This document shows, one piece after another, positions 8,239 to 34,263 of a stretch of 64,000 bases of DNA. The first letter of the stretch is position 1, and each line of letters begins with the position of its first letter. Below the pieces are notes generated by a model. The model worked only from the letters and a program-made list of their open reading frames with translations. It was not told the DNA's origin and made no database searches. Source of the stretch: Syntrophaceae bacterium. Lineage in GTDB: Bacteria; Desulfobacterota; Syntrophia; Syntrophales; UBA5619. The position numbers and the translations under genes are program-made. The stretch lies in the NCBI GenBank assembly GCA_003141195.1, contig PLLC01000107.1, positions 16,174 through 80,173 of the forward strand, read 5' to 3'.

Positions 8239-8961
8239 TTAGAATTTAAAATCATCGCCGAAATAGATCTTTCTCGCAATCTCGGAGCCGGCGATTTCTT
8301 CCGGCGTTCCCTCCACGAGAATCGTTCCCTCGTTGATGATGTAGGCGCGATCACAGACGGAAAGGGTCTCCCGGACATTGTGATCGGAGAGGATGACTCC
8401 GATCCCCTTCGTCCGGAGCCTGGCGATGATCCTTCCGATATCCGCCACCGCCAGTGGATCAATCCCCGCGAAGGGTTCATCGAGAAGGATGTATTTCGGC
8501 GAGGTGACGAGCGCCCGCGTGATCTCCACCCGCCTTCTCTCGCCTCCGGATAACGAATAGGCCCTGTTGTCCGCGAGTTGCGTCAGATCCAGTTCCGCAA
8601 GGAGCAGGTGCAGACGCTCCTCCCTCTCTTCCGGGGTGATGGGAAGCGTCTCGAGGATCGCCAGGATGTTCTCCCGCACCGTCAGCTTCCGGAAAACGGA
8701 TGGCTCCTGCGGAAGGTAATTCAGCCCTTTTCGCGCCCGCATATACATCGGACACCGACTCAGATCCTCACCGTCGAGGAAAATCGCCCCCCCATCCGGC
8801 TGGATCAGCCCGACGATCATGTAGAAGGTGGTCGTCTTTCCGGCGCCGTTGGGCCCCAGGAGGCCGACCACCTCTCCGGAATTGATCTCCAGATGAATCC
8901 GGTCGACCACCCTTTTACCACTGTAGATCTTGATCAGATCCGTCGCAGTCAATTTTCCCAT
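8239..8961 (-). CDS. lptB: LPS export ABC transporter ATP-binding protein LptB
   Basis: 240 aa with GPNGAGKTT, LSGGERRRVEI and ILLDEPFAGIDP. Sits between lptA and rpoN. Confidence 0.93.
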   Translation of the reverse strand: MGKLTATDLIKIYSGKRVVDRIHLEINSGEVVGLLGPNGAGKTTTFYMIVGLIQPDGGAIFLDGEDLSRCPMYMRARKGLNYLPQEPSVFRKLTVRENILAILETLPITPEEREERLHLLLAELDLTQLADNRAYSLSGGERRRVEITRALVTSPKYILLDEPFAGIDPLAVADIGRIIARLRTKGIGVILSDHNVRETLSVCDRAYIINEGTILVEGTPEEIAGSEIARKIYFGDDFKF

Positions 8962-14793: not shown

Positions 14794-14822
14794 TTGATTT
14801 GACACCCCTTTTTGATTATGAT
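14794..14822 (+). promoter_or_regulatory. candidate sigma-70 promoter of the FDH/regulatory operon
   Basis: TTGATT (14794-14799), 17-nt spacer, TATGAT (14817-14822). Embedded in a tandem 15-mer CACCCCTTTTTGATT at 14785-14799 and 14803-14817. Confidence 0.45.
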
Positions 14823-14984: not shown

Positions 14985-15359
14985 TTGCTCCTTCGTGAGG
15001 TACAGAAAATCCTGGATGCCGAGGTACTGGTCGGGGCGGAAAAGCTCGATATGGAGGTCCATACCGCTTTCGGCGCCGACCTCATGAGCGATGTGCTGGC
15101 CTTCGCCGATTCCGGATGCCTTCTGCTGACGGGGTTGACCAATCCTCAGGTCATCCGCACAGCCGATGTGTTGGACATCGCGGCCATCATTATTGTTCGG
15201 GGGAAAAAACCCTCTCCGGAAACCCTCCGCGCCGCGGCAGACAAAAAAATCCCTGTTCTTTCGACAAAGTATATCCTTTTTGAATCAGCGGGTCGTCTGT
15301 ATGAAAAAGGGATTGTCGGTTCCGCACAGAAGGTGGATGGGCGCCGTGTCCGCTTGTGA
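14985..15359 (+). CDS. DRTGG domain protein (paralogue 1)
   Basis: 124 aa with a TTG start after GGAAGGAAG. DLMSDVLAF...LLLTGLTNPQVIRTA...IIIVRGKKP...IPVLSTKY pattern. Confidence 0.75.
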   Translation: MLLREVQKILDAEVLVGAEKLDMEVHTAFGADLMSDVLAFADSGCLLLTGLTNPQVIRTADVLDIAAIIIVRGKKPSPETLRAAADKKIPVLSTKYILFESAGRLYEKGIVGSAQKVDGRRVRL

Positions 15360-15798
15360 AAAATGGCTGTACGAGAACAGCTTCCCCGTCGATGGGGGCA
15401 ATTTTGACGATGCGGGCCGGGTTTCCGGAAGGATCAAGACGATCCTCAAAGAGATGGGGATCGAGAATGATGTGGTTCGGATGGCGGCCGTCATCACCTA
15501 TGAATCGGAGATCAACATTGTTTCCTATGCCCGACATGGGATGATCCGTCTCCATGTGCTGCCCGAATATGTTGAGATCGAAGTCGTAGACGAGGGGCCG
15601 GGGATTTCCGATATCCGTCTGGCCATGCAGCAGGGTTGGTCCACTGCCACCGACAAGATCCGGGAGATGGGTTTCGGCGCCGGCATGGGATTGAACAACA
15701 TCCGCAACTTCTCGGATATCTTTCACATCTCATCCGACGTGGGCAGCGGAACCCGCCTGAAGATGATCATCCATATCCAACAGGAACAGAATCGTTAA
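15337..15798 (+). CDS. GHKL/HATPase_c ATP-binding protein (anti-sigma-factor-type Ser kinase-like, no HisKA domain)
   Basis: Track ORF 15166-15798. Plausible starts are 15301, 15337 and 15346, all overlapping the preceding gene. N-box YESEINIV, G1 DEGPGISD, G2 GFGAGMGLNN. Confidence 0.75.
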   Translation: MGAVSACEKWLYENSFPVDGGNFDDAGRVSGRIKTILKEMGIENDVVRMAAVITYESEINIVSYARHGMIRLHVLPEYVEIEVVDEGPGISDIRLAMQQGWSTATDKIREMGFGAGMGLNNIRNFSDIFHISSDVGSGTRLKMIIHIQQEQNR

Positions 15799-15814
15799 CG
15801 CTGGAGAGAGGGTT

Positions 15815-16159
15815 ATGAATCTCGAGACCATCGTACAGGCATTGCAACTCCGTGTGAAATCAGGCAGAGACAGGTTGGGGGGCGAGGTCCGGGGGGGATA
15901 TGTCGGCGACCTCCTGAGCGATGTCATGGCCAACAGCCGGGAGGGGGATCTCTGGATCACCCGCCAGATCCATCAGAACATCGTCGCGGTCGCCAGCCTC
16001 AAGGATCTCGCCGGAATCATCCTGGTCCTGGGCGCCGAACCCGCCGCGGACACGCTGGAGAAGGCCATCCGGGAAAACATCCCGCTTTTCATGGCAGATC
16101 TGCCGGCCTTCGAAATGGCGGGCAGAATCTATCAGATGATCTGCCCGCGAAAGGCATAA
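15815..16159 (+). CDS. DRTGG domain protein (paralogue 2)
   Basis: 114 aa. DLLSDVMAN...LWITRQIHQNIVAVA...IILVLGAEP...IPLFMADL, parallel to paralogue 1. Confidence 0.75.
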   Translation: MNLETIVQALQLRVKSGRDRLGGEVRGGYVGDLLSDVMANSREGDLWITRQIHQNIVAVASLKDLAGIILVLGAEPAADTLEKAIRENIPLFMADLPAFEMAGRIYQMICPRKA

Positions 16160-16193
16160 CCATCGCAGCGAGGAAAGGGGAATCCTCCGGAAG

Positions 16194-16934
16194 ATGATCA
16201 GGGCTTTTCGTTGCGATCTCCACATGCACACCTGTCTTTCACCCTGTGCCGGCCTGGATATGTACCCGAGCGCCTTGGTCGGACGGGCCGTTGCTGAGAA
16301 ACTGGATGTGATCGCCATCTGTGATCACAACGCATCGGAAAATGTCCCCCATGTGATCCGGGCGGCACGGGGGCACGCACTGGTCGTCCTCCCCGGCATG
16401 GAGATCACAAGCCGGGAAGAGGTCCATCTGCTCGCGCTCTTTGACCGGATGGATTTTCTGCAGCGGCTCCAGGATATCGTTTATTCCCATCTGCCCGGAA
16501 TAAACGATGAGAGTCGCTTCGGTTGCCAGGCGATCGTGAATGAGTTGGACGAGGTCGAGGGGTTTAATAATAGACTGCTAATCGGGGCGACGGAAGTGGC
16601 CCTGGCGGATCTGGTCCGGCATGTTCATGACCTGGGAGGCATTGCCATCGCTTCTCATATTGACCGGGAGAGCTTCAGTGTGATAAGCCAGCTCGGTTTT
16701 GTCGATCCGGAGATCCCTTTCGACGCCCTGGAAATCTCCGGAAGAACAGGACTGGCGCGCGCGCGCAGGAAGTACCCGGAGCTTGCAAATTACCCCTTTT
16801 TGGCATCGTCGGATGCCCATCGGATCGAAGAGATCGGAAAGGGGTTCACGGAGTTCTTCCTGGAGGAACCGTCGGTTCACGAACTGAAGATGGCCTTTTC
16901 CGGACAAGCGGGCCGCCGCATAGCGGGTTTCTGA
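16194..16934 (+). CDS. PHP domain metal-dependent phosphoesterase
   Basis: 246 aa. CDLHMHTCLSPC...IAICDHN...SSDAH are the His/Asp metal-ligand motifs of the PHP fold. Confidence 0.8.
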   Translation: MIRAFRCDLHMHTCLSPCAGLDMYPSALVGRAVAEKLDVIAICDHNASENVPHVIRAARGHALVVLPGMEITSREEVHLLALFDRMDFLQRLQDIVYSHLPGINDESRFGCQAIVNELDEVEGFNNRLLIGATEVALADLVRHVHDLGGIAIASHIDRESFSVISQLGFVDPEIPFDALEISGRTGLARARRKYPELANYPFLASSDAHRIEEIGKGFTEFFLEEPSVHELKMAFSGQAGRRIAGF

Positions 16935-17500
16935 TGCTGGAGCTGGCGCTGCATATTCTGGATATTGCCGAAAACTCGGTCAGAGCCGGGGCAAAGACGG
17001 TCTTCATCGACATTACCGAGGACCGGATGAAAGATCGCCTGTCGATCGGGATCCGGGATGACGGTGTGGGGATGGATGATGCAACCCTGAAAAAGGCCAT
17101 GGATCCCTTCTATACCTCCAAAAAGGTGCGGAGGGTCGGCCTTGGACTTCCCTTGCTCAAGGAGGCGGCCATAAGGGCCGGCGGAAGTTTTACGATCGAT
17201 TCGCACGAAGGGGCTGGAACCCGCGTATCCGTAGGATTCCAGCTCAGCCACATCGACCGCCAGCCGCTGGGCGATCTGACGGGCGCATTCATGGCCCTGA
17301 TCGCAGGCAATGCAGGCGTCGATTTCGTCTGCCGGCATGAATGCGAAGGACATGTCTTTACGCTCGACACACGGGAGATCCGAAGCGAAATCGGTGATAT
17401 ACCTTTGAATCATGTGGAGGTCTTGAAATTTATCCGGCAACATATTATGGAAGGTCTAAGCGGGATAGGAACAGAGGCAAAAAGCGCTCATCATTATTGA
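16934..17500 (+). CDS. GHKL/HATPase_c ATP-binding protein (second copy)
   Basis: 188 aa. The ATG overlaps the PHP stop (TGATG). N-box ENSVRAGA, G1 DDGVGMD, G2 GLGLPLL. Confidence 0.8.
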   Translation: MLELALHILDIAENSVRAGAKTVFIDITEDRMKDRLSIGIRDDGVGMDDATLKKAMDPFYTSKKVRRVGLGLPLLKEAAIRAGGSFTIDSHEGAGTRVSVGFQLSHIDRQPLGDLTGAFMALIAGNAGVDFVCRHECEGHVFTLDTREIRSEIGDIPLNHVEVLKFIRQHIMEGLSGIGTEAKSAHHY

Positions 17501-17515
17501 AGGAGGATACGGTGC

Positions 17516-18010
17516 ATGAATGCGGAAAACAGTGAGCTGTTGAATGAATTTACTGCAGAACAGGTTGTAAAACTGGACGCGATCATCGCCAAACACCGGG
17601 AAAAACCGGGAGGATTGATTCCCGTCCTCGAGGAGGCGCAAGTGGCCCTTGAATATCTGCCGATTTCCGTCCAGAAGAAGATCGCCAAAGATTTGAAACT
17701 CCCGTTCAGCCGGGTTTACGGCGTGGTCACCTTCTATTCCTTCTTCACGATGACCCCCCGCGGCCGGCATACCGTTCGCGTCTGCCTCGGGACGGCCTGT
17801 TATGTGCGCGGCGGCAAGGCGATTGCGGAAGCCCTTTCGAAGGAAGTCGGCGTGGAAGAAGGAGAGACGACGCCGGACCGGAAATTCACCTATGAAACGG
17901 TCCGCTGCCTCGGCGCCTGCGGTCTGGGGCCGGTGTTGATCGTCGATGAGGATGTCCACGGCCGGATGAAACCATCCAAGATTAAAGGCGTGCTCAGCCA
18001 ATACAATTAA
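17516..18010 (+). CDS. NuoE/HydC/HndA-like [2Fe-2S] subunit
   Basis: 164 aa with an AGGAGG RBS. VRVCLGTACYVRG...VRCLGACGLGP cluster motif. Confidence 0.9.
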   Translation: MNAENSELLNEFTAEQVVKLDAIIAKHREKPGGLIPVLEEAQVALEYLPISVQKKIAKDLKLPFSRVYGVVTFYSFFTMTPRGRHTVRVCLGTACYVRGGKAIAEALSKEVGVEEGETTPDRKFTYETVRCLGACGLGPVLIVDEDVHGRMKPSKIKGVLSQYN

Positions 18011-18021
18011 TAGTGAGGTAG

Positions 18022-18411
18022 ATGACGATGGCCAAGCTGAAGATCGAAGATTTGAAGAAGATCAAGGAAAAGGTTCACGCCGAGACCGCCCTCCGGGAGG
18101 GATTCAACCGCGTGAAGGTTACCGTCCACATGGGAACCTGTGGGATCGCCTCCGGGGCAAAGCAGGTCATGGATGAGCTGCTGCGCGATATCGAGGAAGC
18201 GGGTTCGACCGACGTCATGGTCACCACCTCCGGCTGCATGGGACTCTGCAGCCGCGAACCGCTGGTAACGGTGGAGATCCTCGGTCAGGAACCGATCAAA
18301 TACGAATATGTCGATACGAACAAGATGAGACAGATCTTCAAAAGACATGTTCTGCAGGGGGAGATCCAGACGCCGTTCGTGCTGGCGAGGGGCGCGGAAA
18401 TTCTAAAATAG
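18022..18411 (+). CDS. small thioredoxin-like [2Fe-2S] ferredoxin (HndB-like)
   Basis: 129 aa. HMGTCGIASGA...TSGCMGLCSREP. Confidence 0.75.
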   Translation: MTMAKLKIEDLKKIKEKVHAETALREGFNRVKVTVHMGTCGIASGAKQVMDELLRDIEEAGSTDVMVTTSGCMGLCSREPLVTVEILGQEPIKYEYVDTNKMRQIFKRHVLQGEIQTPFVLARGAEILK

Positions 18412-18493
18412 AACCGGAAATTCAATGGGTTCGGATTCGCTGTTCCGGAACCGGCCGAAATGATATCAACATGTGAAGGAGGATAAAATCCAC

Positions 18494-21400
18494 ATGAAAG
18501 TTTTTCGCTCGCATCTGTTGCTCTGTGGAGGAACGGGTTGTCATGCTTCCGGAAGCCTCGAGGTGAAGAAGGTGTTGATCGCCGAACTGGATAAACAGGG
18601 ACTGTCCAACGAAATCAAGCTTGTGGAGACCGGGTGCAACGGATTCTGCGCCATGGGTCCCGTCATGGTCGTCTATCCCGAAGGGATCCTCTATGTGATG
18701 ATCAAACCTGAGGATATTCCAGAGCTGGTGGAAGAGCACCTGGTCAAGGGTCGGGTCCTACAGCGGCTTCTCTACAGGGAACCCGTCACGGAAGGGATCA
18801 TTCCCACGATGCAGGAGATCCCCTTCTTCGCCCTGCAGGATCTGCGGGTGCTCCGGAACCGGGGTCTCATCGATCCGGAAAAGATCGAGGAATTCATCGC
18901 AAGGGACGGTTATGCCGGCATGGCCCAGGCGCTGACCGAAATGACGCCGGATCAGATCATCAAGGAGGTCCTCGATTCGGGGCTTCGTGGCCGGGGTGGC
19001 GCCGGGTTCCCGACCGGTATGAAATGGAAGTTCGCCGCCGCCTCGCAGGGCGACGTTAAATACGTCCTGTGCAACGCCGACGAAGGCGACCCGGGCGCCT
19101 TTATGGACCGCAGCGTCCTGGAGGCGGACCCGCACGCCGTTCTGGAAGGCATGGTCATCGCCGCCAGGGCGATCGGCGCCCATCAGGGTTACATCTACTG
19201 CCGCGCCGAGTATCCGCTGGCCATCCACCGTCTCAACGTCGCCATCGGCCAGGCCAAGGAATACGGCCTCCTGGGAAAGGACATCCTTGGGACCGGCCTT
19301 GACTTTGATCTGGAGATCTACCAGGGCGCGGGCGCCTTCGTCTGCGGCGAGGAAACGGCCCTGATGACCTCGATTGAGGGCAAACGCGGCATGCCGAGAC
19401 CGCGCCCTCCCTTCCCCGCCGTCGCCGGTCTCTGGCAGAAGCCGAGCATCCTGAACAACGTGGAAACCCTCGCCAACATCGGGCAGATCATCCTCCGCGG
19501 CGGCGCCTGGTACGCCAGCGTCGGCACCGAAAAGAGCAAGGGGACGAAGGTCTTCGCGCTCACCGGAGACGTCAACAACGTCGGCCTCGTGGAGGTCCCG
19601 ATGGGAACCACGCTGGGGACCATCGTTTATGACATCGGCGGCGGGATCCCCGGCGGGAAGAAGTACAAGGCAGCCCAGTTGGGCGGTCCCTCCGGCGGCT
19701 GCATTCCTGTCCAGCACCTGAACGCATCGATCGATTACGAGACCATCGTCCAGTTGGGCGCCATCATGGGATCGGGCGGCCTCATCGTCATGAACGAAGA
19801 CAAGTGCGCCGTCGATATGGCCCGTTTCTTCATGGACTTCTGTCAGGACGAGTCCTGCGGCAAGTGCACCCCCTGCCGGGAGGGGACGAAGCGGATGCTG
19901 GAGATCCTGACGAACATCACCGAAGGAAAAGGCAAGGAAGGCGACATTGAGCTCCTCGAGGAAATGGCGGCCATCATCAAGGACGCCTCCCTCTGCGGCC
20001 TCGGCCAGACGGCCCCGAACCCGGTGCTGAGCACCATCCGCTACTTCCACAAGGAGTACGAGGACCACATCCGGAACCACCGCTGCGCGGCGGCCGTCTG
20101 CTCGGCGCTGTTCAAGTCGCCCTGCCAGCACACCTGCCCCGTCGGGATGGACATTCCCTCCTACATCGCCCTGATCCGGGCCGGCCGCCTGGAGGACGCC
20201 TACAAGGTGATGCTCCGGACAAACCCCTTCCCCTCGGTCTGCGGGCGCGTCTGCGACCACAAATGCCAATCCAAGTGCCGCCGCGGGAAGATGGACGAGC
20301 CCATCGCCATCAAGTTCCTGAAGCGGTTCATCTCCGACAACGCCCCGCGGCCGAAGATCGAGGCGGTCCCCGTCACGCGCAAGGAGAAGATCGCCATTGT
20401 CGGCGCCGGTCCTGCCGGGTTGACGGCAGCCAGGGATCTGGCCATCCGCGGTTACAAGGTGACAGTTTTCGAAGAACTGTCCGAAGCGGGCGGAATGCTC
20501 CGCTGGGCGATTCCCTCCTACCGTCTGCCACGTGACATCATCGCCAAGGAGATCGACGACATCCGCGCCCTCGGCGTGGAGATTCGTTGTAACACCCGCG
20601 TCGGGGGGGACGTTCCCTTTGCGAAGATCGATCAGGATTTCGATACCGTCTATCTCGCCCCCGGCGCCCACAAGAGCCAGAAGATGGGCGTCCCTGGCGA
20701 AGAGCTCAAGGGTGTTTACGGCGGCGTCGAGTTCCTCCGGGATTTCAACACCCATGAAACGGCCTGGACCAAGGGCAAAAAGAGCCTGGGCGCCAAAGTA
20801 GCGGTCATCGGCGGCGGCAATTCCGCCATCGACGCGGCCCGTTGCGCGGTCCGCCTCGGCGCCGAGGTGACCATTCTTTACCGTCGTGAACGCAAAGACA
20901 TGCCCGCAGCCACTGACGAGATCATCGCGGCCCTCGAGGAAGGGATCAAGATCGAATTCCTCGTCGCGCCGATCAAGATCGTCGAGAAAAAGGGCAAGGT
21001 GACCGGGATCGCCTGCCAGCGGATGAAGTTAGGCGAGTTCGACCGCAGCGGCCGGAAGAAGCCGATTCCCATCGAAGGGTCCGAGTACACCCTGGGGGTG
21101 GATTCCGTCATCGCCGCCATTGGCCAGGTCCCCGACCTGTCGTTCGTCCCGAAGGAAAGCGGCGTTTCGGTCAACAAGCGGAATTGTTTCGATCTCGCCA
21201 AGGAAAGCGGATCCCGGACGACGAATCCGAAATTCTATGCGGGCGGCGACGCCCTGACGGGTCCGGATACGGTGATCGGCGCCATTGCCGCAGGACACCA
21301 GGCGGCAAAGGATATCGACGGCGCCATCCGGGCTCAGAATTGCGAGGCCGTTTACGAAGAGCCGGCGGGGGAGAAGATCGTCATTCCGTTTGTTCTCGAC

Positions 21401-21550
21401 GAGGAAAACCCCGAAACCCCGCAGACGAAGATGCCGGAACTGCACGGCGCGGACAGGAAGCAGAGCTTCATCGAGGTGGAACTCGGTTTCACGATGGAAG
21501 AGGCCGTCCAGGAGGCGACGCGTTGCCTGAGGTGCGACGTGGAAGTGTAG
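18494..21550 (+). CDS. NuoF/HndC-like flavoprotein fused to a GltD/NfnB-like NAD(P)H-FAD oxidoreductase domain
   Basis: Start moved to ATG 18494 after AAGGAGG. Domains in order:
- N-terminal 2Fe-2S thioredoxin-like domain (CGGTGCH...CNGFCAMGP).
- NuoF core (GLRGRGGAGFPTGMKW, CGKCTPCREG).
- GltD-type Fe-S region (CQHTCP...VCGRVCDHKC).
- FAD site IAIVGAGPAGLTAA.
- NAD(P)H site VAVIGGGNSAIDAAR. Confidence 0.85.
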   Translation: MKVFRSHLLLCGGTGCHASGSLEVKKVLIAELDKQGLSNEIKLVETGCNGFCAMGPVMVVYPEGILYVMIKPEDIPELVEEHLVKGRVLQRLLYREPVTEGIIPTMQEIPFFALQDLRVLRNRGLIDPEKIEEFIARDGYAGMAQALTEMTPDQIIKEVLDSGLRGRGGAGFPTGMKWKFAAASQGDVKYVLCNADEGDPGAFMDRSVLEADPHAVLEGMVIAARAIGAHQGYIYCRAEYPLAIHRLNVAIGQAKEYGLLGKDILGTGLDFDLEIYQGAGAFVCGEETALMTSIEGKRGMPRPRPPFPAVAGLWQKPSILNNVETLANIGQIILRGGAWYASVGTEKSKGTKVFALTGDVNNVGLVEVPMGTTLGTIVYDIGGGIPGGKKYKAAQLGGPSGGCIPVQHLNASIDYETIVQLGAIMGSGGLIVMNEDKCAVDMARFFMDFCQDESCGKCTPCREGTKRMLEILTNITEGKGKEGDIELLEEMAAIIKDASLCGLGQTAPNPVLSTIRYFHKEYEDHIRNHRCAAAVCSALFKSPCQHTCPVGMDIPSYIALIRAGRLEDAYKVMLRTNPFPSVCGRVCDHKCQSKCRRGKMDEPIAIKFLKRFISDNAPRPKIEAVPVTRKEKIAIVGAGPAGLTAARDLAIRGYKVTVFEELSEAGGMLRWAIPSYRLPRDIIAKEIDDIRALGVEIRCNTRVGGDVPFAKIDQDFDTVYLAPGAHKSQKMGVPGEELKGVYGGVEFLRDFNTHETAWTKGKKSLGAKVAVIGGGNSAIDAARCAVRLGAEVTILYRRERKDMPAATDEIIAALEEGIKIEFLVAPIKIVEKKGKVTGIACQRMKLGEFDRSGRKKPIPIEGSEYTLGVDSVIAAIGQVPDLSFVPKESGVSVNKRNCFDLAKESGSRTTNPKFYAGGDALTGPDTVIGAIAAGHQAAKDIDGAIRAQNCEAVYEEPAGEKIVIPFVLDEENPETPQTKMPELHGADRKQSFIEVELGFTMEEAVQEATRCLRCDVEV

Positions 21551-21615
21551 CATTGCGATTGGATTGAAGTTTAATCTTATGAAGATATCGCCTCGCTTCG
21601 GGGCGGAAGGAGCGT

Positions 21616-24318
21616 ATGATGGAAAAGAAGATTCCCCTGAACATGGACGGAAGGGACGTTGAGGCGGTTGCCGGACAGACGATTCTGGAGGTTGCCCGCG
21701 AGCAGGGCATTTACATCCCGACGCTCTGCCACTATTCCAAAACGACAAACGTCGGCGCCTGCCGCGTTTGCGTCGTTGAAGTCGAAAAGGCGAGATCCCT
21801 CGTCGCCTCATGCTGCATGCCGGTCAGTCCCGGCATGGTCATCAAAACGGACACCGCGAAGGTCCGCGCCTCGCAGAGATTGATCGTCGAGTTGCTCTGG
21901 GCCTCCGGGGATCACAACTGCCTGACCTGCGAACAGAACGGCGCCTGCGAACTGCAGAACCTGGTCTACTGGCTCGGGATCGAAAAGCCCCGTTTCAACG
22001 TCGCCCCCCCCGGCTACGAGACCGAAAAAACCAACACGATGATCCAGCGGGATCTCAACAAATGCATCCTCTGCGGACGCTGCATCCGTGCCTGCAACGA
22101 GATCCAGGTCAACGAGGTTCTCGATTTCTCGGGTCGCGGCTCCCGCGCCAAGGTCGGTCCGGCCTTCGGCGCCGACTATATCGATTCCGACTGTTACTTC
22201 TGCGGCGAGTGCGTCGATGCCTGCCCGGTCGGGGCGCTCACCTTCAAACAGGCGCGCTTTGCCGGCCGTCCCTGGGAGTTGAAAAAGATCCGGACAACCT
22301 GCCCCTACTGCGGCGTCGGCTGCCAGATGGACCTCAACGTTTACAATGACCGGATCGTCAAGGTCACCGGCAACCGCGCGTATGAGCAGCCCAACGGCGG
22401 CAGCCTCTGCGTCAAGGGACGGTTTGGACTCGATTTCGTCGGCCATCCCGACCGTCTGAAGACCCCCCTGATCCGGAAGGAAAAGGGCGGGGAGCTGGCG
22501 GCGGCCACCTGGGAGGAGGCCTACGGTTTCATCGCGGATAAACTGAGCGGCATCAAGAAAAATAACGGGCCCGAGAGCATTGCCGGGTTTTCCTCGGCCC
22601 GCAGCACCAATGAGGAAAACTACCTTTTCCAGAAGTTCATGCGCGCGGGCATCGGCACCAACCATATCGATCACTGCGCCCGTCTCTGACACTCCGTGAC
22701 GGTGGCCGGTCTGGCCGCCGCATTCGGAAGCGGTGCGATGACGAACTCCATCGAGGAGATCGAATTCACCGATGTCATCCTGGCGATGGGAACCAATACG
22801 ACGGAAAACCACCCCGTACTATCGTCCCGGATCAAGCGGGCCGTCCGCCAGCGTGGCGCCAAACTGATCGTGATCGACCCCCGGGAGATTGATCTCGTCA
22901 AGTATGCGACGCTCTGGCTCCGGCAGAAACCGGGAACGGACGTCGCCGTTCTGAACGGAATGATGAACATCATCATCACCGAGGGGATCTATGCGAAGGA
23001 ATACGTGGAGAACCGGACGGAGGGCTTCGAGGCCCTGAAGAAGACCGTCGCCGCCTACACGCCCAAACACGTCGAGAAGATTTCGGGCGTACCCGCGGAA
23101 GACCTGAAGGCGGCCGCGCGCCTCTACGCGAAGGCAAACAAGGCCTCCATCCTTTACGCGATGGGGATGACACAGCACATCACCGGGACGGACAACGTCA
23201 AGTCCTGTGCCAACATCTCCATGCTCTGCGGGAAAATCGGCATCGAGGGCGGCGGCGTCAACCCGCTCCGGGGGCAGAACAACGTCCAGGGCGCCTGCGA
23301 TATGGGGGCGCTGCCGACTGTCTTTCCTGCATACCAGCCGGTGGCCAATGACGAAACGCGGGCCAAATTCGAGAAGGCCTGGGGTGCGGCGCTCCCGGCC
23401 AAACCGGGGAAAACGATCGTCGAGATCATGGATGGCGCCCATAAGGGAGAGATCAAGGCCCTCTATATCATGGGCGAAAACCCGATGATCTCCGATCCCG
23501 ACCTCACCCACGTGGAGGCGTCGCTGAAACACCTGGACCTCCTCATCGTTCAGGATATCTTCCTGACGGAGACGGCGAGGCTTGCCGACGTGGTCCTCCC
23601 CTCCGCCTGCTTTGCGGAAAAGGACGGCACCTTCACCAACACGGAACGAAGGGTCCAGCGCGTCCGGAAAGCCGTTCCGGCACCCGGTCAGGCGAAGGCG
23701 GACTGGGAGATCATCGCGGGCATCTCCGCGAAGATGGGCTATCCCATGAACTACGCCTCGGCAGCAGAGATTATGGCGGAAATCAATGCCGTCGCCCCGA
23801 GCTATGCGGGGATCACCTATGAGCGTCTTGAGAAGGAGGGAATCCAGTGGCCCTGCCCCAACACGGGCCATCCGGGAACCCGTTTCCTCCACAAGGACCG
23901 GTTCAGCCGGGGACGCGGACTCTTCCATGCCATCGAGTATATACCGCCGGCGGAACAGACCGATGATGAATATCCGATCATCCTGTCCACGGGGCGGGTC
24001 CTCTACCATTACCATACCGGCACGATGACGCGGCTCTCCCAAGGATCCATGGAACGCTGTCCCGAATCCCTGGTTGAGATCAATCCCCGTGACGCGGAGA
24101 AGCTCGGCATCGAGGACGGACAGACCGTCAAGGTCACCTCACGACGCGGGACGCTGCAGGCCAAGGCGAAGATAACCACCCGTTCCGACCGGGGGACGAT
24201 TTTCATGAATTTCCACTTCCACGAGGCGGCGGTGAACTTCCTGACCAACCCGGCGCTCGATCCCATCGGAAAGATTCCGGAGTACAAGGTCTGTGCCGTC
24301 CGGGTGGAGGCGGCCTGA
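21616..24318 (+). CDS. fdhA: selenocysteine-containing formate dehydrogenase catalytic subunit with NuoG-like N-terminal Fe-S domains (in-frame TGA at 22687 read as Sec)
   Basis: Track ORFs 21616-22689 and 22696-24318 are in the same frame. The junction reads [29 protein letters not shown], the canonical FDH active-site Sec/Cys context. N-terminus carries 2Fe-2S, a His-ligated 4Fe-4S, 2x4Fe-4S, then CPYCGVGC and molybdopterin domains. Confidence 0.9.
22687..22722 (+). promoter_or_regulatory. Sec-UGA plus candidate bacterial SECIS hairpin
   Basis: TGA at 22687-22689. Hairpin GGTGGCC (22701-22707), loop GGTCT, GGCCGCC (22713-22719): 7 bp including one G-U, starting 11 nt after the UGA. The loop sequence resembles the fdhF SECIS apical GGUCU. 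Confidence 0.7.
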
Positions 24319-24398
24319 AGAAAGCATTTGGATCGTTTGCGTTCCCCGGCGGCGCCGGGGTTAGATTGAAAATCATCGGAAACAAGGGAGGACACAAG

Positions 24399-25634
24399 AT
24401 GTCAGAGGAACGACTGGAAAGCAAGCGCTGGGGGATCGCCATAGCCGCCGTTGTCATGCAGTTGAGCCTGGGAACGGTCTATGCGTGGTCCGTATTCAAG
24501 AAGCCTCTCATGACGGCGCACGGCTGGGGGGAAACAGAGACGCAGGTCACCTTCATGATCTGCATCGGCATGATCGGGATTGCCGCCGCCTTCGGCGGCG
24601 CGCTGGTGGACAAGAAGGGGCCCCGTTTCGTGGCGACCCTGGGAGGTATCCTCTTTGGGGTCGGCACCCTTTTGGCGGGTCTGGCCGACCAGCTCGGAAA
24701 CATCTATTTGCTCTATCTGGGCTTCGGCTTGATCGCCGGTCTGGGGAACGGTTTCGGCTATGTGACGCCAATCGCGACGCTGATCCGTTGGTTTCCGGAC
24801 AAGCGGGGTCTGGTGACGGGTCTGGCCGTCATGGGATTCGGCTTCGGCGCCTTCTTCATGGGAAAGATCGCCCCGGGGATGGTCAACGGCATGGGCGTCG
24901 CCACCACCTTCTACATCCTGGGGATCATTTTCCTGATCCTGGTCACGGCCGCCGCGCAGTTCTACAAGAACCCCCCCAAGGGCTGGCTTCCCGCAGGCTT
25001 CACGCCGTCCAAGACGGCGGCATCCGCCGCCCAGTCCTTCACCTTCGACGAAGCCAAGAAGACCCCCCAGTGGTGGATGCTGTGGGCCATGCTCTGCCTG
25101 AACATCTCCGCGGGTCTGGGTCTGCTCTCGCAGCTCTCCCCGATGGCCCAGGATATCATCGGCAAGACCCAGGGGCTCACCGATCCTAAGGCGCTGGCGC
25201 TGGCCGGTGGCACGATCCTGGCCATCGCCTCCATCTTCAACGGCCTGGGGCGTCTCTTCTGGGCCTGGCTGTCCGACGCGATCGGCCGGAAGAATATCTT
25301 CATGATCATGTTCATCACGCAGGCCATTCTCTATATTCTTTTGCCGCAGATCAGCAGCCAGTTTCTGTTCACCGTGATTGCCTGCTACCTTCTGGCCTGC
25401 TACGGCGGGGGATTCGCGACGATGCCTGCCTTCGTAGCCGACTCCTTCGGACCGGCCTATATCGGCAGGGTGTATGGGATCATGCTGACCGCCTGGTCGG
25501 TTGCCGGGGTCATCGGCCCGCTGGTATTCGCCCAGCTCAAGGGGATCGCCCTCTACGTGGCGGCGGGGCTTCTGATTGTGGGGTTCCTCATCGCCCTTGG
25601 CTACAAGCGTCCGGAGCCGAAGAAGGCTGCGTAA
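24399..25634 (+). CDS. MFS transporter, oxalate/formate antiporter (OFA) family; probable formate transporter
   Basis: Start moved to ATG 24399 after AAGGGAGG. MSEERLESKRWGIAIAAVVMQLSLGTVYAWSVF is a typical OFA N-terminus, with about 12 predicted TM helices. Confidence 0.8.
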   Translation: MSEERLESKRWGIAIAAVVMQLSLGTVYAWSVFKKPLMTAHGWGETETQVTFMICIGMIGIAAAFGGALVDKKGPRFVATLGGILFGVGTLLAGLADQLGNIYLLYLGFGLIAGLGNGFGYVTPIATLIRWFPDKRGLVTGLAVMGFGFGAFFMGKIAPGMVNGMGVATTFYILGIIFLILVTAAAQFYKNPPKGWLPAGFTPSKTAASAAQSFTFDEAKKTPQWWMLWAMLCLNISAGLGLLSQLSPMAQDIIGKTQGLTDPKALALAGGTILAIASIFNGLGRLFWAWLSDAIGRKNIFMIMFITQAILYILLPQISSQFLFTVIACYLLACYGGGFATMPAFVADSFGPAYIGRVYGIMLTAWSVAGVIGPLVFAQLKGIALYVAAGLLIVGFLIALGYKRPEPKKAA

Positions 25635-25726: not shown

Positions 25727-25760
25727 GGCGCCCGCCGGTTCTTCCGGCGGGCGCCTTTTT
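25727..25760 (+). terminator. rho-independent terminator ending the FDH operon
   Basis: GGCGCCCGCCGG-ttctt-CCGGCGGGCGCC (12-bp perfect stem) followed by TTTTTAT. Confidence 0.85.
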
Positions 25761-27456: not shown

Positions 27457-27533
27457 GGGCGATTAGCTCAGTTGGATAGAGCGCTGGTCTCCGGAACCAG
27501 AGGCCGTGGGTTCAAGTCCCACATCGCCTACCA
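27457..27533 (+). tRNA. tRNA-Arg (anticodon CCG)
   Basis: Hand-folded cloverleaf: acceptor GGGCGAT/ATCGCCT, D arm GCTC/GAGC, anticodon stem CTGGT/ACCAG with loop CTCCGGA, T arm GTGGG-TTCAAGT-CCCAC, encoded CCA. Confidence 0.93.
27485..27533 (+). repeat. attL: 49-bp direct repeat (3' part of tRNA-Arg)
   Basis: Base-for-base identical to 38759-38807. Confidence 0.9.
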
Positions 27534-27541
27534 AGTAAATC

Positions 27542-27579
27542 AGGGGCTTAACGAATTACAGTTAGCCCCTCTTTTTTTG
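27542..27579 (+). terminator. rho-independent terminator just after tRNA-Arg (supplied by island DNA)
   Basis: AGGGGCTTAAC-gaattaca-GTTAGCCCCT followed by CTTTTTTTG. Confidence 0.7.
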
Positions 27580-27581
27580 TC

Positions 27582-27601
27582 TGCTACCCTATAGCTACCC
27601 T
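27582..27601 (+). repeat. 20-nt arm repeat TGCTACCCTATAGCTACCCT (copy 1; internal tandem GCTACCCT x2)
   Basis: Identical to 38603-38622, in the same orientation. Lies 49 bp inside attL. Confidence 0.8.
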
Positions 27602-27910
27602 TTTTATTTTTTACCCTCAATCACATGCTCATTATTTAGAATGTTAGAAGATGAAATATTATGTATGGATAGGGCCAGGGGGAGGCTCCCCACTGGATTG
27701 ATGGGTTCCCTTCTCCTGTCATTGACAAGTAGCTCGGTGCACACGGCGGGTAAAAATCGGAAACACAGCTATAGTGCACCGTTGCGAAAAAGTGTCCTGA
27801 CCAATATTTGACCTTACAAACACTGTCAAATTAAGTCTCCGTCTCTTTTAACGAGTTCACCTACCAACACTCAGCCCAAGGTGGCAATGGAAGATGAACA
27901 TTACTGAAGG

Positions 27911-27950
27911 AAACAAACGAAAAGGCAGAGCCATTTGACCAGCCCTGCCT
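27911..27950 (-). terminator. rho-independent terminator of the HAF/PEP-CTERM gene
   Basis: Minus strand: AGGCAGGGC-tggtcaaatg-GCTCTGCCT (9 bp, one G-U) followed by TTTTCGTTTGTTT. Confidence 0.65.
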
Positions 27951-27976
27951 TTCGATTTAGTTCTACACCCGGTTTA

Positions 27977-28885
27977 CTAACTCAGCCTTCTCCTGACTCC
28001 TGCAAGGCCCATAAGCCCGAGGCCAAGAAGCAGCATGGTGGTTGGTTCGGCAACATCAAAATAACTGCCCACAACCGCACCGGCATCGTTGATGCCGCGA
28101 GCGGTAGTATAACGAATATTAGTGCCGGGGTAAATAATTTTGTTATACGTATCTCCGCTCATCAGGAAGCCGAAAGTATTGGCACCAGAGCCACTACCAC
28201 CCACAACCATTCCCGCATCATTGATGTCATAGGCGTAAGTATTATGTTCGCCTGGGTAATCGAATGAGGTATACGTATCTCCGGTTTTCAGGAAGCCATG
28301 CGTATAGTGGCCATCATAATAATAACCCACAACAGTACCGGTATCGTTGATGCCATAGGCGAGAGTCCAAACTGCGCCTGGGTAATCGAATGAGGTATAC
28401 GTATCTCCGTTTTTGAGGAAGCCATGCTCGAAACCAGACTTCCCATAAGAACCCACAACGGTACCGACATCGTTGATGCCAAGGGCGGAAGTATTGTGGT
28501 CGCCTGGGTAATCAAATGAGGTCAACGTATCTCCGGTTTTCAGGAAGCCATACCCTATGCCCGAATCACTATAACTGCCCACAATAGTACCGGCATCATT
28601 GATGTCATAGGCTGTGCCAAAACTGCCGGGAAGATCAAGTGATGTATACGTATCTCCGGTTTTCAGGAAGCCATTACAGTTGCTGTAACTGGATTCACAG
28701 TAATAACCCACAACGTTACCGGCATCGTTGATGCCAAAGGCGAGAGTATAAATAGCGCCGGGGTTATTAAGTGAGGTATACGTGTCTCCGCTCTTCAGGA
28801 AACCGTAAAACTCATCAGCATGTGCCGTGGAAAAAAATAGAAACAAAAATATTATGCAACAAATACTTTTTGATAGCGTTTTCAC
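27977..28885 (-). CDS. secreted HAF-family extracellular repeat protein with C-terminal PEP-CTERM sorting signal
   Basis: Start moved to GTG 28885 after GGGGGAGG (MKTLSKSICCIIFLFLFFSTAHA signal peptide). Six ~42-aa repeats (GFLK.GDTYTS.DYPG....A.GINDAG.VVG.Y). C-terminus VAEPTTMLLLGLGLMGLAGVRRRLS. Confidence 0.85.
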   Translation of the reverse strand: MKTLSKSICCIIFLFLFFSTAHADEFYGFLKSGDTYTSLNNPGAIYTLAFGINDAGNVVGYYCESSYSNCNGFLKTGDTYTSLDLPGSFGTAYDINDAGTIVGSYSDSGIGYGFLKTGDTLTSFDYPGDHNTSALGINDVGTVVGSYGKSGFEHGFLKNGDTYTSFDYPGAVWTLAYGINDTGTVVGYYYDGHYTHGFLKTGDTYTSFDYPGEHNTYAYDINDAGMVVGGSGSGANTFGFLMSGDTYNKIIYPGTNIRYTTARGINDAGAVVGSYFDVAEPTTMLLLGLGLMGLAGVRRRLS

Positions 28886-28940
28886 GGATTCCTCCCCCCA
28901 ATTAAATAACAAGATAAAGACCTAATGACTTGTAAAGCCA

Positions 28941-28985
28941 CACAAAAAAATAATAAGCCCCCTTTCATTTAACCCAACAGGGGGC
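28941..28985 (-). terminator. intrinsic-terminator-like hairpin ~55 nt upstream of the HAF gene start (transcript end or leader attenuator)
   Basis: Minus strand: GCCCCCT-gttgggttaaatgaa-AGGGGGC followed by TTATTATTTTTTTGTG. Confidence 0.55.
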
Positions 28986-29927
28986 ATATTTATGGTACTT
29001 TCCGGAAGAGACTCTTCATTGATAACTCCGTATGATGAAGGAACAAATCAACAAAGTCTTGAAAAGAAATACACTAATATCTAAGCACAAAATATGCCAA
29101 ACTATTTATAAATATTTATTATGCTTCGATGTTCCCTGATATATAACGATATAAGCATGTAAAAAATCATTTCTGCTTAATGGAATGAACCCTCTAATGC
29201 CCAAGTGCCATCATTAATCGTAAAGGTATCCGACACAAATGGTGGCCTATAATCATATAATAGCTACAAGCTGCTGTAATTATTGTATTGAACAATTATC
29301 AAAGTTGTAAGTATATCCGACACTATAGAATGTACAAGGCGAGCGTTACCAATCATAATCTTGTAAGTTCCAGCATGGCTGGCATGTGTGGATTTCAGGA
29401 AGTACGCATCAACCGGGTGAACCATAATATGTATGGACAGGGCCGGGGGGAGAAGCCCATTGTATGGATACCTTATTTGGGCATTCATCAGTCCTGCGGT
29501 ACGCACGAAGGCTAAAAAAGGTAACCATGAACTGTACCGTTTACGCTAAAGTAATCGAGACACCACGGAAATGCCTTTGATACGGCGGTAAGGAATCCAT
29601 TACCGCGTAACCCGCAAGGGGGGGGGAATTTTCACCTGAAGTTGATCTCAAATAGGGAGCACTGTAAAGGCAGTTAGGATTCCTCGCCCAAAGATGATGA
29701 ATAATTTAGATTCATCCGGGTCTTGCGTACTTCTCTCTCGTTCACCTGCTAACAAATGATTTTTAGAAGTCTGGATGTTAATGATTATGGAAAGAAAGGG
29801 GGAATATGAATAGTTTCAAAATTCACCCTTTCCCCGTAAATGATCACACACTGCATCCTTCAGAAACACCCGTCCCAGAAATACTGCCATCTGATTTCTA
29901 ATTACCATAAAAGTGCATTTAGGCGGA

Positions 29928-32522: not shown

Positions 32523-32730
32523 TTCCCCCCTCCCAGCTATTTCAGAATCCAATCCCCATGATGTTGCTATCACCGGTCATGCCTTATTGATTGAATAATG
32601 GGATTTTATCTGGACCCGTCTAAAATTCTATCCAGTCTCCTCCTTCTCAACACACAAAACCCCACACTTTTTAAGAAACGGGGTCTTTATATTCGTTACC
32701 ATCTTTTCACTTCATTTTTAGAGAAATAAA

Positions 32731-33057
32731 TTACTTCCAGTTTCCAGACAATTGCCACCACGTAAGCACATCATTTGTAAAAGTGAGCCGGGCAGAAGGT
32801 CTTTGTACAGGAAGCGTCATGGCCACATTACCAACCGGCATAATTACCGTACCTCCTTCTCCATAAATCCATGTGCATACTCGTGTCTTTCCTGCTTCTG
32901 CGCATTGAGAAGGGGGGCCAAATCTTTGAAGTGCCTCCTCGTAAGACATTTCATTCATACGTGAATTTAACATATCTTGTGTCTCATGCGTTGTTGCACA
33001 TCCATTGAGGCATAAAAAAATTGCAACAAAAAGATAAAATATTGACTTTTTCATCAT
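32731..33057 (-). CDS. small lipoprotein (BamE/SmpA-like size class), function unknown
   Basis: Start moved to MMKKSIFYLFVAIFLCLNGC (lipobox LNGC). 108 aa. Confidence 0.6.
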   Translation of the reverse strand: MMKKSIFYLFVAIFLCLNGCATTHETQDMLNSRMNEMSYEEALQRFGPPSQCAEAGKTRVCTWIYGEGGTVIMPVGNVAMTLPVQRPSARLTFTNDVLTWWQLSGNWK

Positions 33058-33091
33058 CCACTCCTTCAAAACGCAAAACCCCGCACGGAAT

Positions 33092-33367
33092 TCACCGGCA
33101 AACATTTTGCCATCGTCCATTGACCTGCATATACTGGCACCGTGAAGTACCAATTGGCGGAACATTTATTGACGGCAGTGGCTTCAATTCCACTGACGGC
33201 AATGCCGGTATAGGCGGAACATTTATTGACGGCAGGTCATAGGTATTGTCGCAAATGTCTACGTACCGGCAATTGTATCCACCGTCGTCGCATACGTAAG
33301 AACTCCGGCAAACTCCAAAAGCATTTGTAGCAAACAACACAATAACCAAAATAATTAAACTTTTCAT
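33092..33367 (-). CDS. small secreted cysteine-rich protein with internal LPSINVPPI repeat
   Basis: Start moved to MKSLIILVIVLFATNAFG. The mature part has 8 Cys. A 23-nt DNA repeat at 33156-33178 and 33213-33235 encodes the duplicated LPSINVPPI. Confidence 0.55.
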   Translation of the reverse strand: MKSLIILVIVLFATNAFGVCRSSYVCDDGGYNCRYVDICDNTYDLPSINVPPIPALPSVELKPLPSINVPPIGTSRCQYMQVNGRWQNVCR

Positions 33368-33399
33368 CTCTCTATCTCCTTTTCTATTGCTGTTTTTAA

Positions 33400-33687
33400 T
33401 TACCGGCTCTTTAGACATTTAAACAATTGCCGTTCGATTTCCTTCTGAAATTCGTTTAAAAATACAGGGTCTGTCCGTATCTTTGCCAGGGCGCTTTCTG
33501 TAGCCTGCATAAGCCGATCTTCTTCCCTCTGGATCTTTTCAAGCATATCAGCCCGTCTTGCGATCCTGGATATAGTAGGCTGAGAGGTATGAAGTAATTC
33601 GGCAATCTTTCTTTGCGACGTGCCCACAGCCAGCGCATGGGCAAGTATCATTTTTATATGCGGTAAGTTGATTTTGGACTTATTCAT
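33400..33687 (-). CDS. small helix-turn-helix DNA-binding protein
   Basis: 95 aa. GTSQRKIAELLHTSQPTISRIARR is a classic HTH. Confidence 0.65.
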   Translation of the reverse strand: MNKSKINLPHIKMILAHALAVGTSQRKIAELLHTSQPTISRIARRADMLEKIQREEDRLMQATESALAKIRTDPVFLNEFQKEIERQLFKCLKSR

Positions 33688-33794
33688 CGTTTAATTTCCT
33701 CTTTTTGAATCAAAAGTCAATCGAAATGAATAGGAAATTATAATAATTGACTGTTCAGGCGTCACGCACACAGAGACTTTTATCCGGTACGGCA

Positions 33795-34193: not shown

Positions 34194-34213
34194 TTTCAAT
34201 TCTCCTGAAAAGT

Positions 34214-34229
34214 GTCCGCATAATCCGCA
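34214..34229. promoter_or_regulatory. operator-like motif, inverted copy (GTCCGCATAATCCGCA)
   Basis: Near reverse complement of TGCGGATATTGCGGAC at 34264-34279, 34 bp away. Lies upstream of ORF 33795-34193. Confidence 0.5.
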
Positions 34230-34263
34230 AAACCCCTTTGGCAATCTTCCTGCCGGGGGATTC

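Follow-up and report, generated by a model that had tools for sequence, protein, structure and literature searches.

A widespread HydB::GltD fusion with a bifurcating-type core, a permuted GltD module and no ferredoxin arm, encoded beside a selenocysteine formate dehydrogenase in Syntrophaceae

In the solved enzymes of the bifurcating Bfu family, electrons from the mid-potential substrate reach the B1 cluster and the FMN, where NAD(H) reacts, and the [2Fe-2S] cluster of the C subunit (C1) swings from the FMN to 10-18 Å of the B3/B4 clusters, where ferredoxin is reduced. The ferredoxin-like domain is carried on a hinge with bound Zn or 2Fe-2S, and the hinge His is conserved in virtually all Bfu B subunits (PMC12018979). 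As published, the family is defined partly by the ferredoxin-type domain IPR017896. We describe here a relative of these enzymes that lacks this domain. It is encoded by four tightly spaced genes (17516-24318, + strand) in a 64,000-nucleotide stretch of contig PLLC01000107.1 of a Syntrophaceae bacterium (the window), and its central component is a 1018-amino acid fusion (18494-21550, +) of a NuoF-like, HydB/BfuB-type protein with a GltD-type module. This HydB::GltD fusion is an apparently undescribed but widespread design. No published description of it was found in the full-text literature searched, including the Bfu, Stn, Nfn, Losey, Agne and Smithella papers, although such an absence is not proof. 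The Smithella papers simply label these enzymes confurcating, and database names for relatives of the fusion are generic ('NuoF', 'FAD-dependent oxidoreductase', 'HndC').

The closest solved relatives of the HydC and HydB cores are the HydABC/BfuABC enzymes, namely FeFe-HydABC of T. maritima, A. woodii and T. kivui and NiFe-HydABCSL of A. mobile. Like these, the window system has the N-terminal 2Fe-2S site, FMN, B1, His/Cys hinge and signature residues in its B subunit, and 2Fe-2S, His-ligated and 2x4Fe-4S clusters in its A subunit. Unlike these, it has GltD in place of B3/B4 and a selenocysteine (Sec) formate dehydrogenase (FDH) as catalytic subunit. The Stn/NfnABC enzymes (S. ovata, 8oh5; C. 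saccharolyticus NfnABC; T. sibiricus) are built from the same blocks, that is HydC-like, HydB-like, permuted GltD and FDH-like domains. However, their GltD module is an insertion in the A subunit, behind the 2Fe-2S domain, and B3/B4 are retained on the B subunit, whereas here GltD lies on the B subunit. The FDH-like domain of StnC is also catalytically dead, whereas FdhA of the window contains Sec and has no GltD insert. Because GltD sits on the other subunit and the FDH domain, as read from its sequence, is active, the system does not have the StnC architecture. It combines Bfu/Hnd-like working with Stn/NfnABC parts and is a full member of neither group.

The fusion protein and its two nucleotide sites

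A sequence-only reading of this DNA, made before any database search, had described the NuoF-like protein as 1018 amino acids long from the ATG at 18494 and as running on into a complete GltD/NfnB-like module. Domain searches bear out both the length and the fusion (residues are numbered here from that ATG, and an alternative GTG start at 18473 is possible). Specifically, Pfam assigns 2Fe-2S_thioredx to residues 5-81, Complex1_51K to 160-329 (E 2e-47), SLBB to 353-402 and NADH_4Fe-4S to 441-525 (E 4e-37), followed in the C-terminal half by Fer4_20 at 531-617 (E 6e-26) and Pyr_redox_2 at 632-934 (E 3e-29). NCBIfam likewise identifies residues 128-526 as NuoF (E 2e-149) and residues 495-1014 as the GltD-like PRK12771 (E 1e-144). 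The motifs quoted in that reading, CGKCTPCREG, CQHTCP...VCGRVCDHKC, GAGPAGLTAA and VIGGGNSAIDAAR, are all present in the sequence. An assembly chimera or a frameshift is ruled out by the occurrence of the exact protein on 16 public contigs and by 69 full-length orthologues (54-88% identity, from separate species-level genomes), which underlie all conservation counts given for the fusion. Every ligand listed below is kept in 67-69 of the 69 orthologues while non-ligand cysteines vary freely, and both halves are under selection. One polypeptide holds two intact dinucleotide sites, an FMN/NAD(H) and an FAD/NADP(H) site, as had been inferred, and the residues of both are conserved in the 69 orthologues.

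The N-terminal half is of the bifurcating BfuB/HydB type as judged from its residues and alignments. It begins with a thioredoxin (Trx)-like [2Fe-2S] domain holding the B5 site (C11, C16, C48 and C52; residues 5-81, 18506-18736, +; PF01257), whose cysteines are kept in 67-69 orthologues. This is followed by the FMN/NAD(H) core with SLBB (residues 160-402, 18971-19699, +; PF01512 E 2e-47), with motifs invariant in 68-69, and by the NuoF-type [4Fe-4S] domain of B1 (C455, C458, C461 and C501; residues 441-525, 19814-20068, +; PF10589 E 4e-37; cysteines in 68-69), which is the IPR019575 domain expected of a BfuB. The RGRGGAGFPTG motif of the Nuo51 FMN-binding domain (IPR011538) is invariant in the orthologues. 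The SLBB domain (PF10531, IPR019554) matches at E 6e-5, below the gathering score, and its GGPSG motif is kept in all 69. The B2 hinge motif EYEDHIRNHRCAAAVC (residues 521-536, 20054-20101, +; H525, C531 and C536, with C438) aligns residue for residue with HydB, StnB and NfnB. The motif has the pattern EYExHIRxxxCxAxxC, and all 69 orthologues keep its His and Cys.

We compared this half with the residue criteria of PMC7311640, which have been proposed to separate bifurcating-type from NADH-only beta subunits. The fusion has the bifurcating-type signatures A202..M204 in CNADEGDPGAFMDR, F282 in GAGAFVCGEE, and GGPSG at 397-401. In FdsABG-type beta subunits the signatures are T/S..K/S/A and Y, GGPSG is absent and there are no additional Fe-S domains. 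Because the residues of the fusion are the opposite ones at each of the three signature positions, the system is not an FdsABG-type NAD-FDH. The ranking of PDB relatives of residues 1-542 agrees: HydB/StnB/NfnB chains of enzymes shown by experiment to bifurcate match at E 1e-240 to 1e-182 and FdsB/Nqo1/NuoF chains at 1e-125 to 1e-111, the E-values of FdsB chains being ~115-130 orders of magnitude poorer than those of HydB chains. The same is true of the NuoE/HoxE-like subunit HydC/BfuC (164 amino acids, C1 [2Fe-2S] site, 17516-18010, +; PF01257 E 3e-50), whose best PDB matches are HydC chains of bifurcating hydrogenases (7t2r_C, 2.5e-50; 7q4v_C, 1.5e-45). The earlier judgement that this is not a simple NAD-dependent FDH is thus upheld for the NuoF half. 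Note that FdsABG (R. capsulatus / C. necator) and FdhB-2/FdhB-4 of S. aciditrophicus do share a NuoE/NuoF-type diaphorase with the window system, and that FdhA is most similar to their alpha subunits. Identity with the S. aciditrophicus enzymes is ruled out, as those are of the non-bifurcating type without any C-terminal domain.

What the fusion lacks is the ferredoxin-type 2x[4Fe-4S] domain of B3/B4 (IPR017896). Pfam gave no Fer4-type match on it, no CX2CX2CX3CP motif is present, and its alignments to all HydB chains end at residue ~541. In the nearest non-fused relative (P0127, 61% identity, 597 amino acids) two CX2CX2CX3CP motifs start 14 residues past the hinge; in the fusion the hinge is followed by FKSPCQHTCP, which opens the GltD cluster domain and puts the first cluster Cys of GltD 8 residues past the hinge. 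The GltD module had been taken for an extension of the NuoF-like protein, and it does follow the NuoF part, but these alignments place it where B3/B4 would be, as a replacement and not an addition. Since the published Bfu definition includes IPR017896, the fusion was probably left out of that census. With GltD occupying the hinge-hung position of B3/B4, our proposal is that NADP(H) is the endpoint of the low-potential branch. The window system would then be a soluble FDH or CO2 reductase on a Bfu (HydABC/Hnd)-type core, with its low-potential branch hard-wired to NADP(H) and with NADH and NADPH coupled, a reading that we put forward tentatively and that falls somewhat short of being probable. 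It is consistent with the operon, in which a Pfam scan of 14985-25634 found no ferredoxin gene and no NfnS/PyrK-like gene.

The C-terminal half (residues 541-1018, 20114-21547, +) is a complete GltD module, but its topology is not that of NfnB, to which it had been likened. Residues 541-1015 align end to end, including the C-terminal CxxC, with StnC (8oh5_C residues 101-566, 2e-94) and with 9bov_A (residues 101-567, 6e-110). The alignment to T. maritima NfnB splits: NfnB residues 5-43, ending RCLQC, correspond to the extreme C-terminus of the fusion (RCLRCD), and the remainder follows in order. Because of this split, the module is recognised as circularly permuted relative to NfnB/GltD, as in StnC/NfnA. 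Its 2x[4Fe-4S] ligands are C544, C548, C1011 and C1014, and C583, C587, C591 and C595; its FAD site is GAGPAG (637-642), and its NADPH site is GGGNSAIDAA (773-782) with YRR (796-798), which we take to bind the 2'-phosphate of NADPH. All eight cysteines, both GxGxxG/A motifs, YRR and the Arg of IPxYRLP are conserved. An alignment had been suggested as a check on the C-terminal half; made against StnC, NfnB and NfnSL, it shows the FAD/NAD(P)H-binding residues to be present.

This permuted topology also brings in an alternative. In StnC/NfnA the identically permuted GltD is a plain, non-bifurcating NADPH input into the A chain, and by analogy the module of the fusion could equally be a mere second entry point. 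The system would then be an uncoupled NAD(P)H-dependent FDH with dual input, in which the GltD arm and the FMN site are independent entries or exits, either nucleotide suffices and no bifurcation occurs. Proteins of ~650 amino acids (P0212, P0214, P0227, P0230, P0232, P0239 and P0263) combine a NuoF 4Fe-4S domain with GltD, lack the FMN domain and align to fusion residues ~400-1014, and one cluster of them carries the JGI name 'formate dehydrogenase beta subunit'. They recall the NADP-dependent FdhAB of Moorella thermoacetica, likewise a Sec-FDH with an NADP-binding Fe-S flavoprotein (likened here by description only), whose FdhB is described with 4Fe-4S, ferredoxin-binding and NADP-binding domains. 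Unlike the fusion, Moorella FdhB and the ~650-residue proteins have neither an FMN/NADH domain nor a 2Fe-2S domain at the N-terminus, and no HydC partner. The enzymes known from syntrophs moreover include hydrogenases and FDHs that depend on NADH and do not bifurcate. Because the StnC module is non-bifurcating and the ~650-residue proteins are annotated as FDH beta subunits, we regard uncoupled dual input as a serious rival. Nevertheless we consider it unlikely, given that the NuoF half has every bifurcating-type signature together with the hinge and is far nearer to HydB than to FdsB, that GltD is attached not to the A subunit but to the hinge, which otherwise bears the gated domain that reduces ferredoxin, and that a simple dehydrogenase would have no need to retain HydC, HndB or the N-terminal 2Fe-2S domain.

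The C-terminal half is about as similar to the large subunits of bifurcating NfnSL (4ylf_B, 2e-104; 5jca_L, 2e-92) as to StnC/NfnA, and in NfnSL two [4Fe-4S] clusters form the ferredoxin branch. By analogy ferredoxin could still bind the GltD clusters here. In an enzyme of this kind, handling four substrates in an Nfn/Stn-like way, ferredoxin would dock on the distal GltD [4Fe-4S] cluster and formate-dependent reduction of NAD+ and ferredoxin would be combined with NADH-dependent Fd:NADP+ transhydrogenase activity, in keeping with the 'transhydrogenase-coupled' option of the sequence-only reading. An Arg contacts flavin N5 in Nfn and is kept in the fusion, but the non-bifurcating StnC keeps it too; as a marker of bifurcating versus non-bifurcating GltD modules this residue proved uninformative, being kept in both kinds. 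The system is not NfnSL, because no gene for NfnS/NfnA (PyrK-like, with FAD, 2Fe-2S and an NAD site) lies in 14985-25634, and the topology, being Stn-type permuted, differs as well. With the high-potential partner of NfnSL absent from the operon and no ferredoxin gene in or adjoining the cassette in the window, we regard the four-substrate enzyme as quite unlikely.

Catalytic partners and distribution

The catalytic subunit FdhA (21616-24318, +), the BfuA equivalent, had been called a Sec-FDH with NuoG-like Fe-S domains, and this is what the domain searches found. Its Pfam domains are Fer2_4, the NuoG His-cluster domain (NADH-G_4Fe-4S_3), a 2x[4Fe-4S] dicluster domain, Molybdop_Fe4S4, Molybdopterin and Molydop_binding, with a predicted cofactor set of 2Fe-2S, His-ligated 4Fe-4S, 2x4Fe-4S and Mo/W-bisPGD. 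The part after the Sec residue passes the Fdh-alpha model TIGR01591 on its own (701.9 bits versus a cutoff of 666), and the PDB matches are 7vw6_A (5e-236) and 6tg9_A (1e-229). FdhA shows the features of Sec-FDH alpha subunits, that is Mo/W-bisPGD domains, an N-terminal 4Fe-4S cluster and an active-site Sec followed by His. The in-frame TGA at 22687-22689 (+), in the context CARL-U-HS, is TGA in all 18 orthologous genes compared. Beginning 13 nucleotides past the UGA is a SECIS-like hairpin (22700-22720, +) with an 8-bp stem and a GGUCU loop, supported by folding and alignment; its consensus structure is kept in the 10 sequences aligned, where two pairs show compensatory changes. The single-sequence fold has a z-score of -1.7, weak taken alone, and an Rfam scan gave no SECIS family match. 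The selenocysteine of FdhA is real. A BfuC partner (IPR002023) and a BfuA-type partner carrying 2Fe-2S and 4Fe-4S domains are both encoded in the cluster, as expected of the BfuABC family.

Relatives were sought in one genome per species, which gave at least 553 stretches encoding them, and the locus counts below refer to the best 80 loci. These are mostly Syntrophales, Smithella and Syntrophaceae metagenome-assembled genomes (MAGs), with loci of Zymogenaceae, Desulfatiglandales, Syntrophorhabdus and Thermoleophilia at 54-69% identity. The Hnd-type order of NuoE-like, HndB and NuoF-like genes, previously noted for the window together with a catalytic gene with a NuoG-like N-terminus, is kept in 72-74 of the 80 loci. 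The fourth gene is FdhA here and the [FeFe] hydrogenase gene HydA in 32 loci (Pfam-verified in L013, where HydF follows). Sec-FdhA lies downstream of the fusion in 20 loci, and a BfuA-like protein with NiFe small and large subunits in two. One of these two, L017, is Pfam-confirmed; L040 was assigned by similarity only. In L017 (9449-13237) a BfuA-like pterin-fold protein and the NiFe small and large subunits come after the fusion, in the layout of NiFe-HydABCSL. Fourteen loci have no catalytic gene within the 6 kb searched from the fusion, and in 12 the contig ends. In L059 (9414-13366), counted under HydA, HydA and a divergent FdhA (49% identity) stand in tandem. The cluster had been read as an FDH complex, which is correct for this genome, yet the fusion is not FDH-specific, the [FeFe] hydrogenase being the commoner partner (32 versus 20 loci).

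A neighbour-joining tree shows the partners interleaved, with HydA in the basal lineages and a single clade of partner-less loci. Close relatives can differ in their partner, as with HydA in L055 versus FdhA in L002-L004. Since the partners are interchangeable, the window system represents a general nucleotide module in its FDH form and not an invention specific to FDH. The partner-less clade is a monophyletic group of Syntrophales/Deltaproteobacteria MAGs (L036, L037, L038, L039, L041, L042, L044 and L047) that keeps the whole cassette; no HydA, FdhA or NuoG-like gene was found within 6 kb in this group, with the contig of L042 ending soon past the fusion. The partner-less module may work alone, for example as a transhydrogenase. 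Both a partner-less clade and interchangeable partners are expected if FMN and FAD communicate within the HydC/fusion module, and the H2 and formate couples of the partner subunits have nearly equal potentials.

The Hnd likeness extends to HndABCD of Desulfovibrio (Solidesulfovibrio) fructosovorans, which has the same gene order. The C-terminal domain of HndA (2auv_A) matches the NuoE-like protein at 3e-22, and one orthologue of the fusion is auto-annotated 'HndC'. A ferredoxin-like domain at the end of HndC and an [FeFe] hydrogenase as HndD set this system apart from the window proteins. The small HndB-like, Trx-fold protein of the window (129 amino acids, 18022-18411, +) is present in 74 of the 80 loci and resembles the N-terminal Trx-like domain of StnB/NfnB in the PDB; it also matches 2Fe-2S ferredoxin models weakly (fdxn_Clost of NCBIfam at E 3e-9, under the cutoff). 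It has three Cys only (C40, C72 and C76), with His at the first Cys position of the usual CX4C...CX3C 2Fe-2S motif. An FDH is likewise coupled to a HydBC-like NAD(H)/ferredoxin module in HylABC-FdhF2 of Gottschalkia/Clostridium acidurici and in predicted Desulfotomaculum homologues. Unlike the fusion, however, HylB carries no GltD but two 4Fe-4S domains at its C-terminus, and HylA and FdhA are separate proteins.

Some further observations concern the relatives. In some Syntrophus-like MAGs a peptidase M29 gene lies between the fusion and FdhA (9066-10178 in L002; 13134-14240 in L008), and in L008 a squalene-hopene cyclase gene and a thiolase-like gene are also inserted, with FdhA 5.8 kb downstream. 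Two stand-alone ~520-residue 'GltD' matches (P0153 and P0170) were rejected as cases of gene fission; because both begin mid-domain they are contig-edge fragments, and one carries an MCIRDRS adapter artefact. Distant full-length NuoF-GltD fusions (P0123, P0126, P0136, P0140, P0151, P0163 and P0193; 36-46% identity) were kept out of the family on account of degenerate FMN motif, GGPSG and/or B1 Cys. Some distant fusions have an extra C-terminal ferredoxin-like extension past CLRCD, and the degenerate ones probably form a different, uncharacterised family.

The operon and its surroundings

The four genes, whose coordinates and domains agree with those first described, form part of a larger unit, an 11-gene operon of ~10.7 kb (14985-25634, +) that includes five conserved accessory genes and a major facilitator superfamily (MFS) monocarboxylate transporter gene. 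Upstream of the first gene is a sigma-70-like promoter match (14794-14822, +), which agrees with the consensus at 9 of 12 positions and is no more than a consensus match. The accessory genes, all on the + strand, code for a DRTGG-domain protein (14985-15359; PF07085 E 3e-11; 58 of the 80 loci), a histidine-kinase-like ATPase (HATPase_c; 15166-15798, start uncertain and probably near 15301; PF02518 E 7e-8; 53 loci), a second DRTGG-domain protein (15815-16159; PF07085 E 2e-4; 62 loci), a PHP-domain protein (16194-16934; PF02811 and PF13263; 64 loci) and a second HATPase_c protein (16934-17500; PF02518 E 4e-16; 68 loci). The resulting cassette order, DRTGG-HATPase-DRTGG-PHP-HATPase-HydC-HndB-fusion, is near-universal among the 80 loci, and the five-gene set accompanies HydC-HndB-fusion irrespective of the catalytic subunit. 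DRTGG, HATPase and PHP accessory genes are typical of hyd operons, and possible roles for this set lie in regulation or maturation.

These five sensor-like genes also bear on a different reading of the GltD arm, in which it would serve another acceptor (polysulfide, oxygen or a small oxidant, as in SudA/Nso-type enzymes) or sense the NADPH pool, with the remainder acting as a truncated, ferredoxin-independent NADH-FDH. GltD-like modules do occur in enzymes of many acceptors, such as SudA, SfrB and Nso. However, the NADPH motifs and all cluster ligands of the fusion are strictly conserved, its partners are always H2- or formate-converting subunits or none, and a Pfam scan found no sulfur- or oxygen-related genes among those of the operon. 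We therefore hold this reading to be very improbable.

The MFS transporter gene (24366-25634, +) matches the NCBI model 'L-lactate MFS transporter SfMCT' (NF049980, 421.9 bits, cutoff 320) and the oxalate-formate antiporter family (TIGR00890, E 6e-65), and similar genes adjoin FdhA in L001, L002 and L004. At a guess from family and position, it could be a formate carrier or exporter. The operon ends at a strong intrinsic terminator (25727-25755, +), a 12-bp all-GC stem followed by TTTTTATATT.

Downstream of the operon an 11.3-kb genomic island (27457-38807) is integrated into tRNA-Arg(CCG) and is flanked by a perfect 49-bp direct repeat over the tRNA 3' end (27485-27533 and 38759-38807). It codes for a tyrosine integrase (37326-38483, -), an 852-amino acid open reading frame (ORF) with no NCBIfam match (34286-36844, -), and ORFs of 311 amino acids (27977-28912, with internal 126-nt tandem repeats) and 881 amino acids (29928-32573); its GC content falls to 43-50% in parts. 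Elsewhere in the window, ORFs at 6755-8218 (-) and 8239-8961 (-) look by eye like RpoN and an LptB-like ABC ATPase, and NCBIfam identifies DnaB (41418-42773, +), ClpB (47983-50568, +) and ValS (62197-63972, -). This housekeeping context is consistent with a chromosomal location.

A proposed electron path and its weight

If the two nucleotide sites are coupled as we propose, FdhA, with Sec and Mo/W-bisPGD, would exchange electrons with CO2/formate and hand them on, through its NuoG-like chain of clusters, to B1 and the FMN of the fusion, where NAD(H) would bind. A gated low-potential branch would lead through the two GltD [4Fe-4S] clusters to the FAD and the NADP(H) site. In the syntrophic direction NADH at the FMN and NADPH at the FAD would jointly reduce CO2 to formate, which could be exported by the co-transcribed MFS carrier; in sister genomes with a hydrogenase the same pair of nucleotides would reduce H+ to H2. 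In the opposite direction, electrons from formate would go to NAD+ and NADP+ jointly. The enzyme may do without ferredoxin, or ferredoxin may still find a docking site at the GltD clusters.

A simple calculation gives the coupling some thermodynamic sense. We used an in vivo NADPH potential of ~-380 mV and an E0' of -430 mV for CO2/formate. For NADH we took the in vivo value of ~-280 mV given in PMC9304861. By this calculation NADH alone would yield micromolar formate only, whereas NADH and NADPH together, with a mean of ~-330 mV, would allow ~50-fold more.

Several points weigh against the coupling of NADH and NADPH, beginning with the StnC precedent and the ~650-residue relatives described above. 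The nucleotide specificity at either site is assigned from motifs only, and the geometry, the stoichiometry and the position of the GltD clusters relative to C1, B1 and the FdhA chain are parts of the proposal that go beyond the sequence. As a low-potential partner NADPH falls far short of ferredoxin, and in formate oxidation a gated bifurcation site feeding NADP+ would waste energy. Ferredoxin may bind at the GltD clusters, as already raised from the likeness to NfnSL, and the catalytic gene of the 14 partner-less genomes may lie elsewhere in the genome. A broader version of our proposal, which we regard as possible but rather doubtful, is that HydC/HndB/HydB::GltD is a ferredoxin-independent bifurcation module, in which the low-potential output of the Bfu flavobicluster site would run over the two low-potential [4Fe-4S] clusters of an Nfn-like module straight to FAD/NADP(H), that Syntrophales use it to confurcate NADH and NADPH to formate or H2, and that the partner-less form is a stand-alone NADH/NADPH transhydrogenase.

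Syntrophic degraders of fatty acids, alkanes and aromatics, such as Smithella and Syntrophaceae, live at the thermodynamic limit, and it has long been asked how they shed NADH electrons as H2 or formate, for which ferredoxin-dependent confurcation or plain NADH-dependent enzymes are usually invoked. The cassette occurs in at least several hundred species-level genomes of just such organisms, where the literature calls it 'confurcating hydrogenase/FDH' or 'NuoF', yet its ferredoxin arm is missing and an NADPH site is carried instead. It also presents a natural experiment in modularity, with one nucleotide module swapped among FeFe, NiFe and Sec-FDH subunits even between close genomes. If NADPH replaces ferredoxin, redox-balance models of these organisms would change, the repertoire of Bfu-type wiring would grow and a natural scaffold for an NAD(P)H-driven CO2 reductase or hydrogenase would be at hand. 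If the ferredoxin-independent module is real, it would represent a new coupling mode of flavin-based bifurcation and would explain how Rnf-poor syntrophs re-oxidise NADH at realistic levels of formate and H2.

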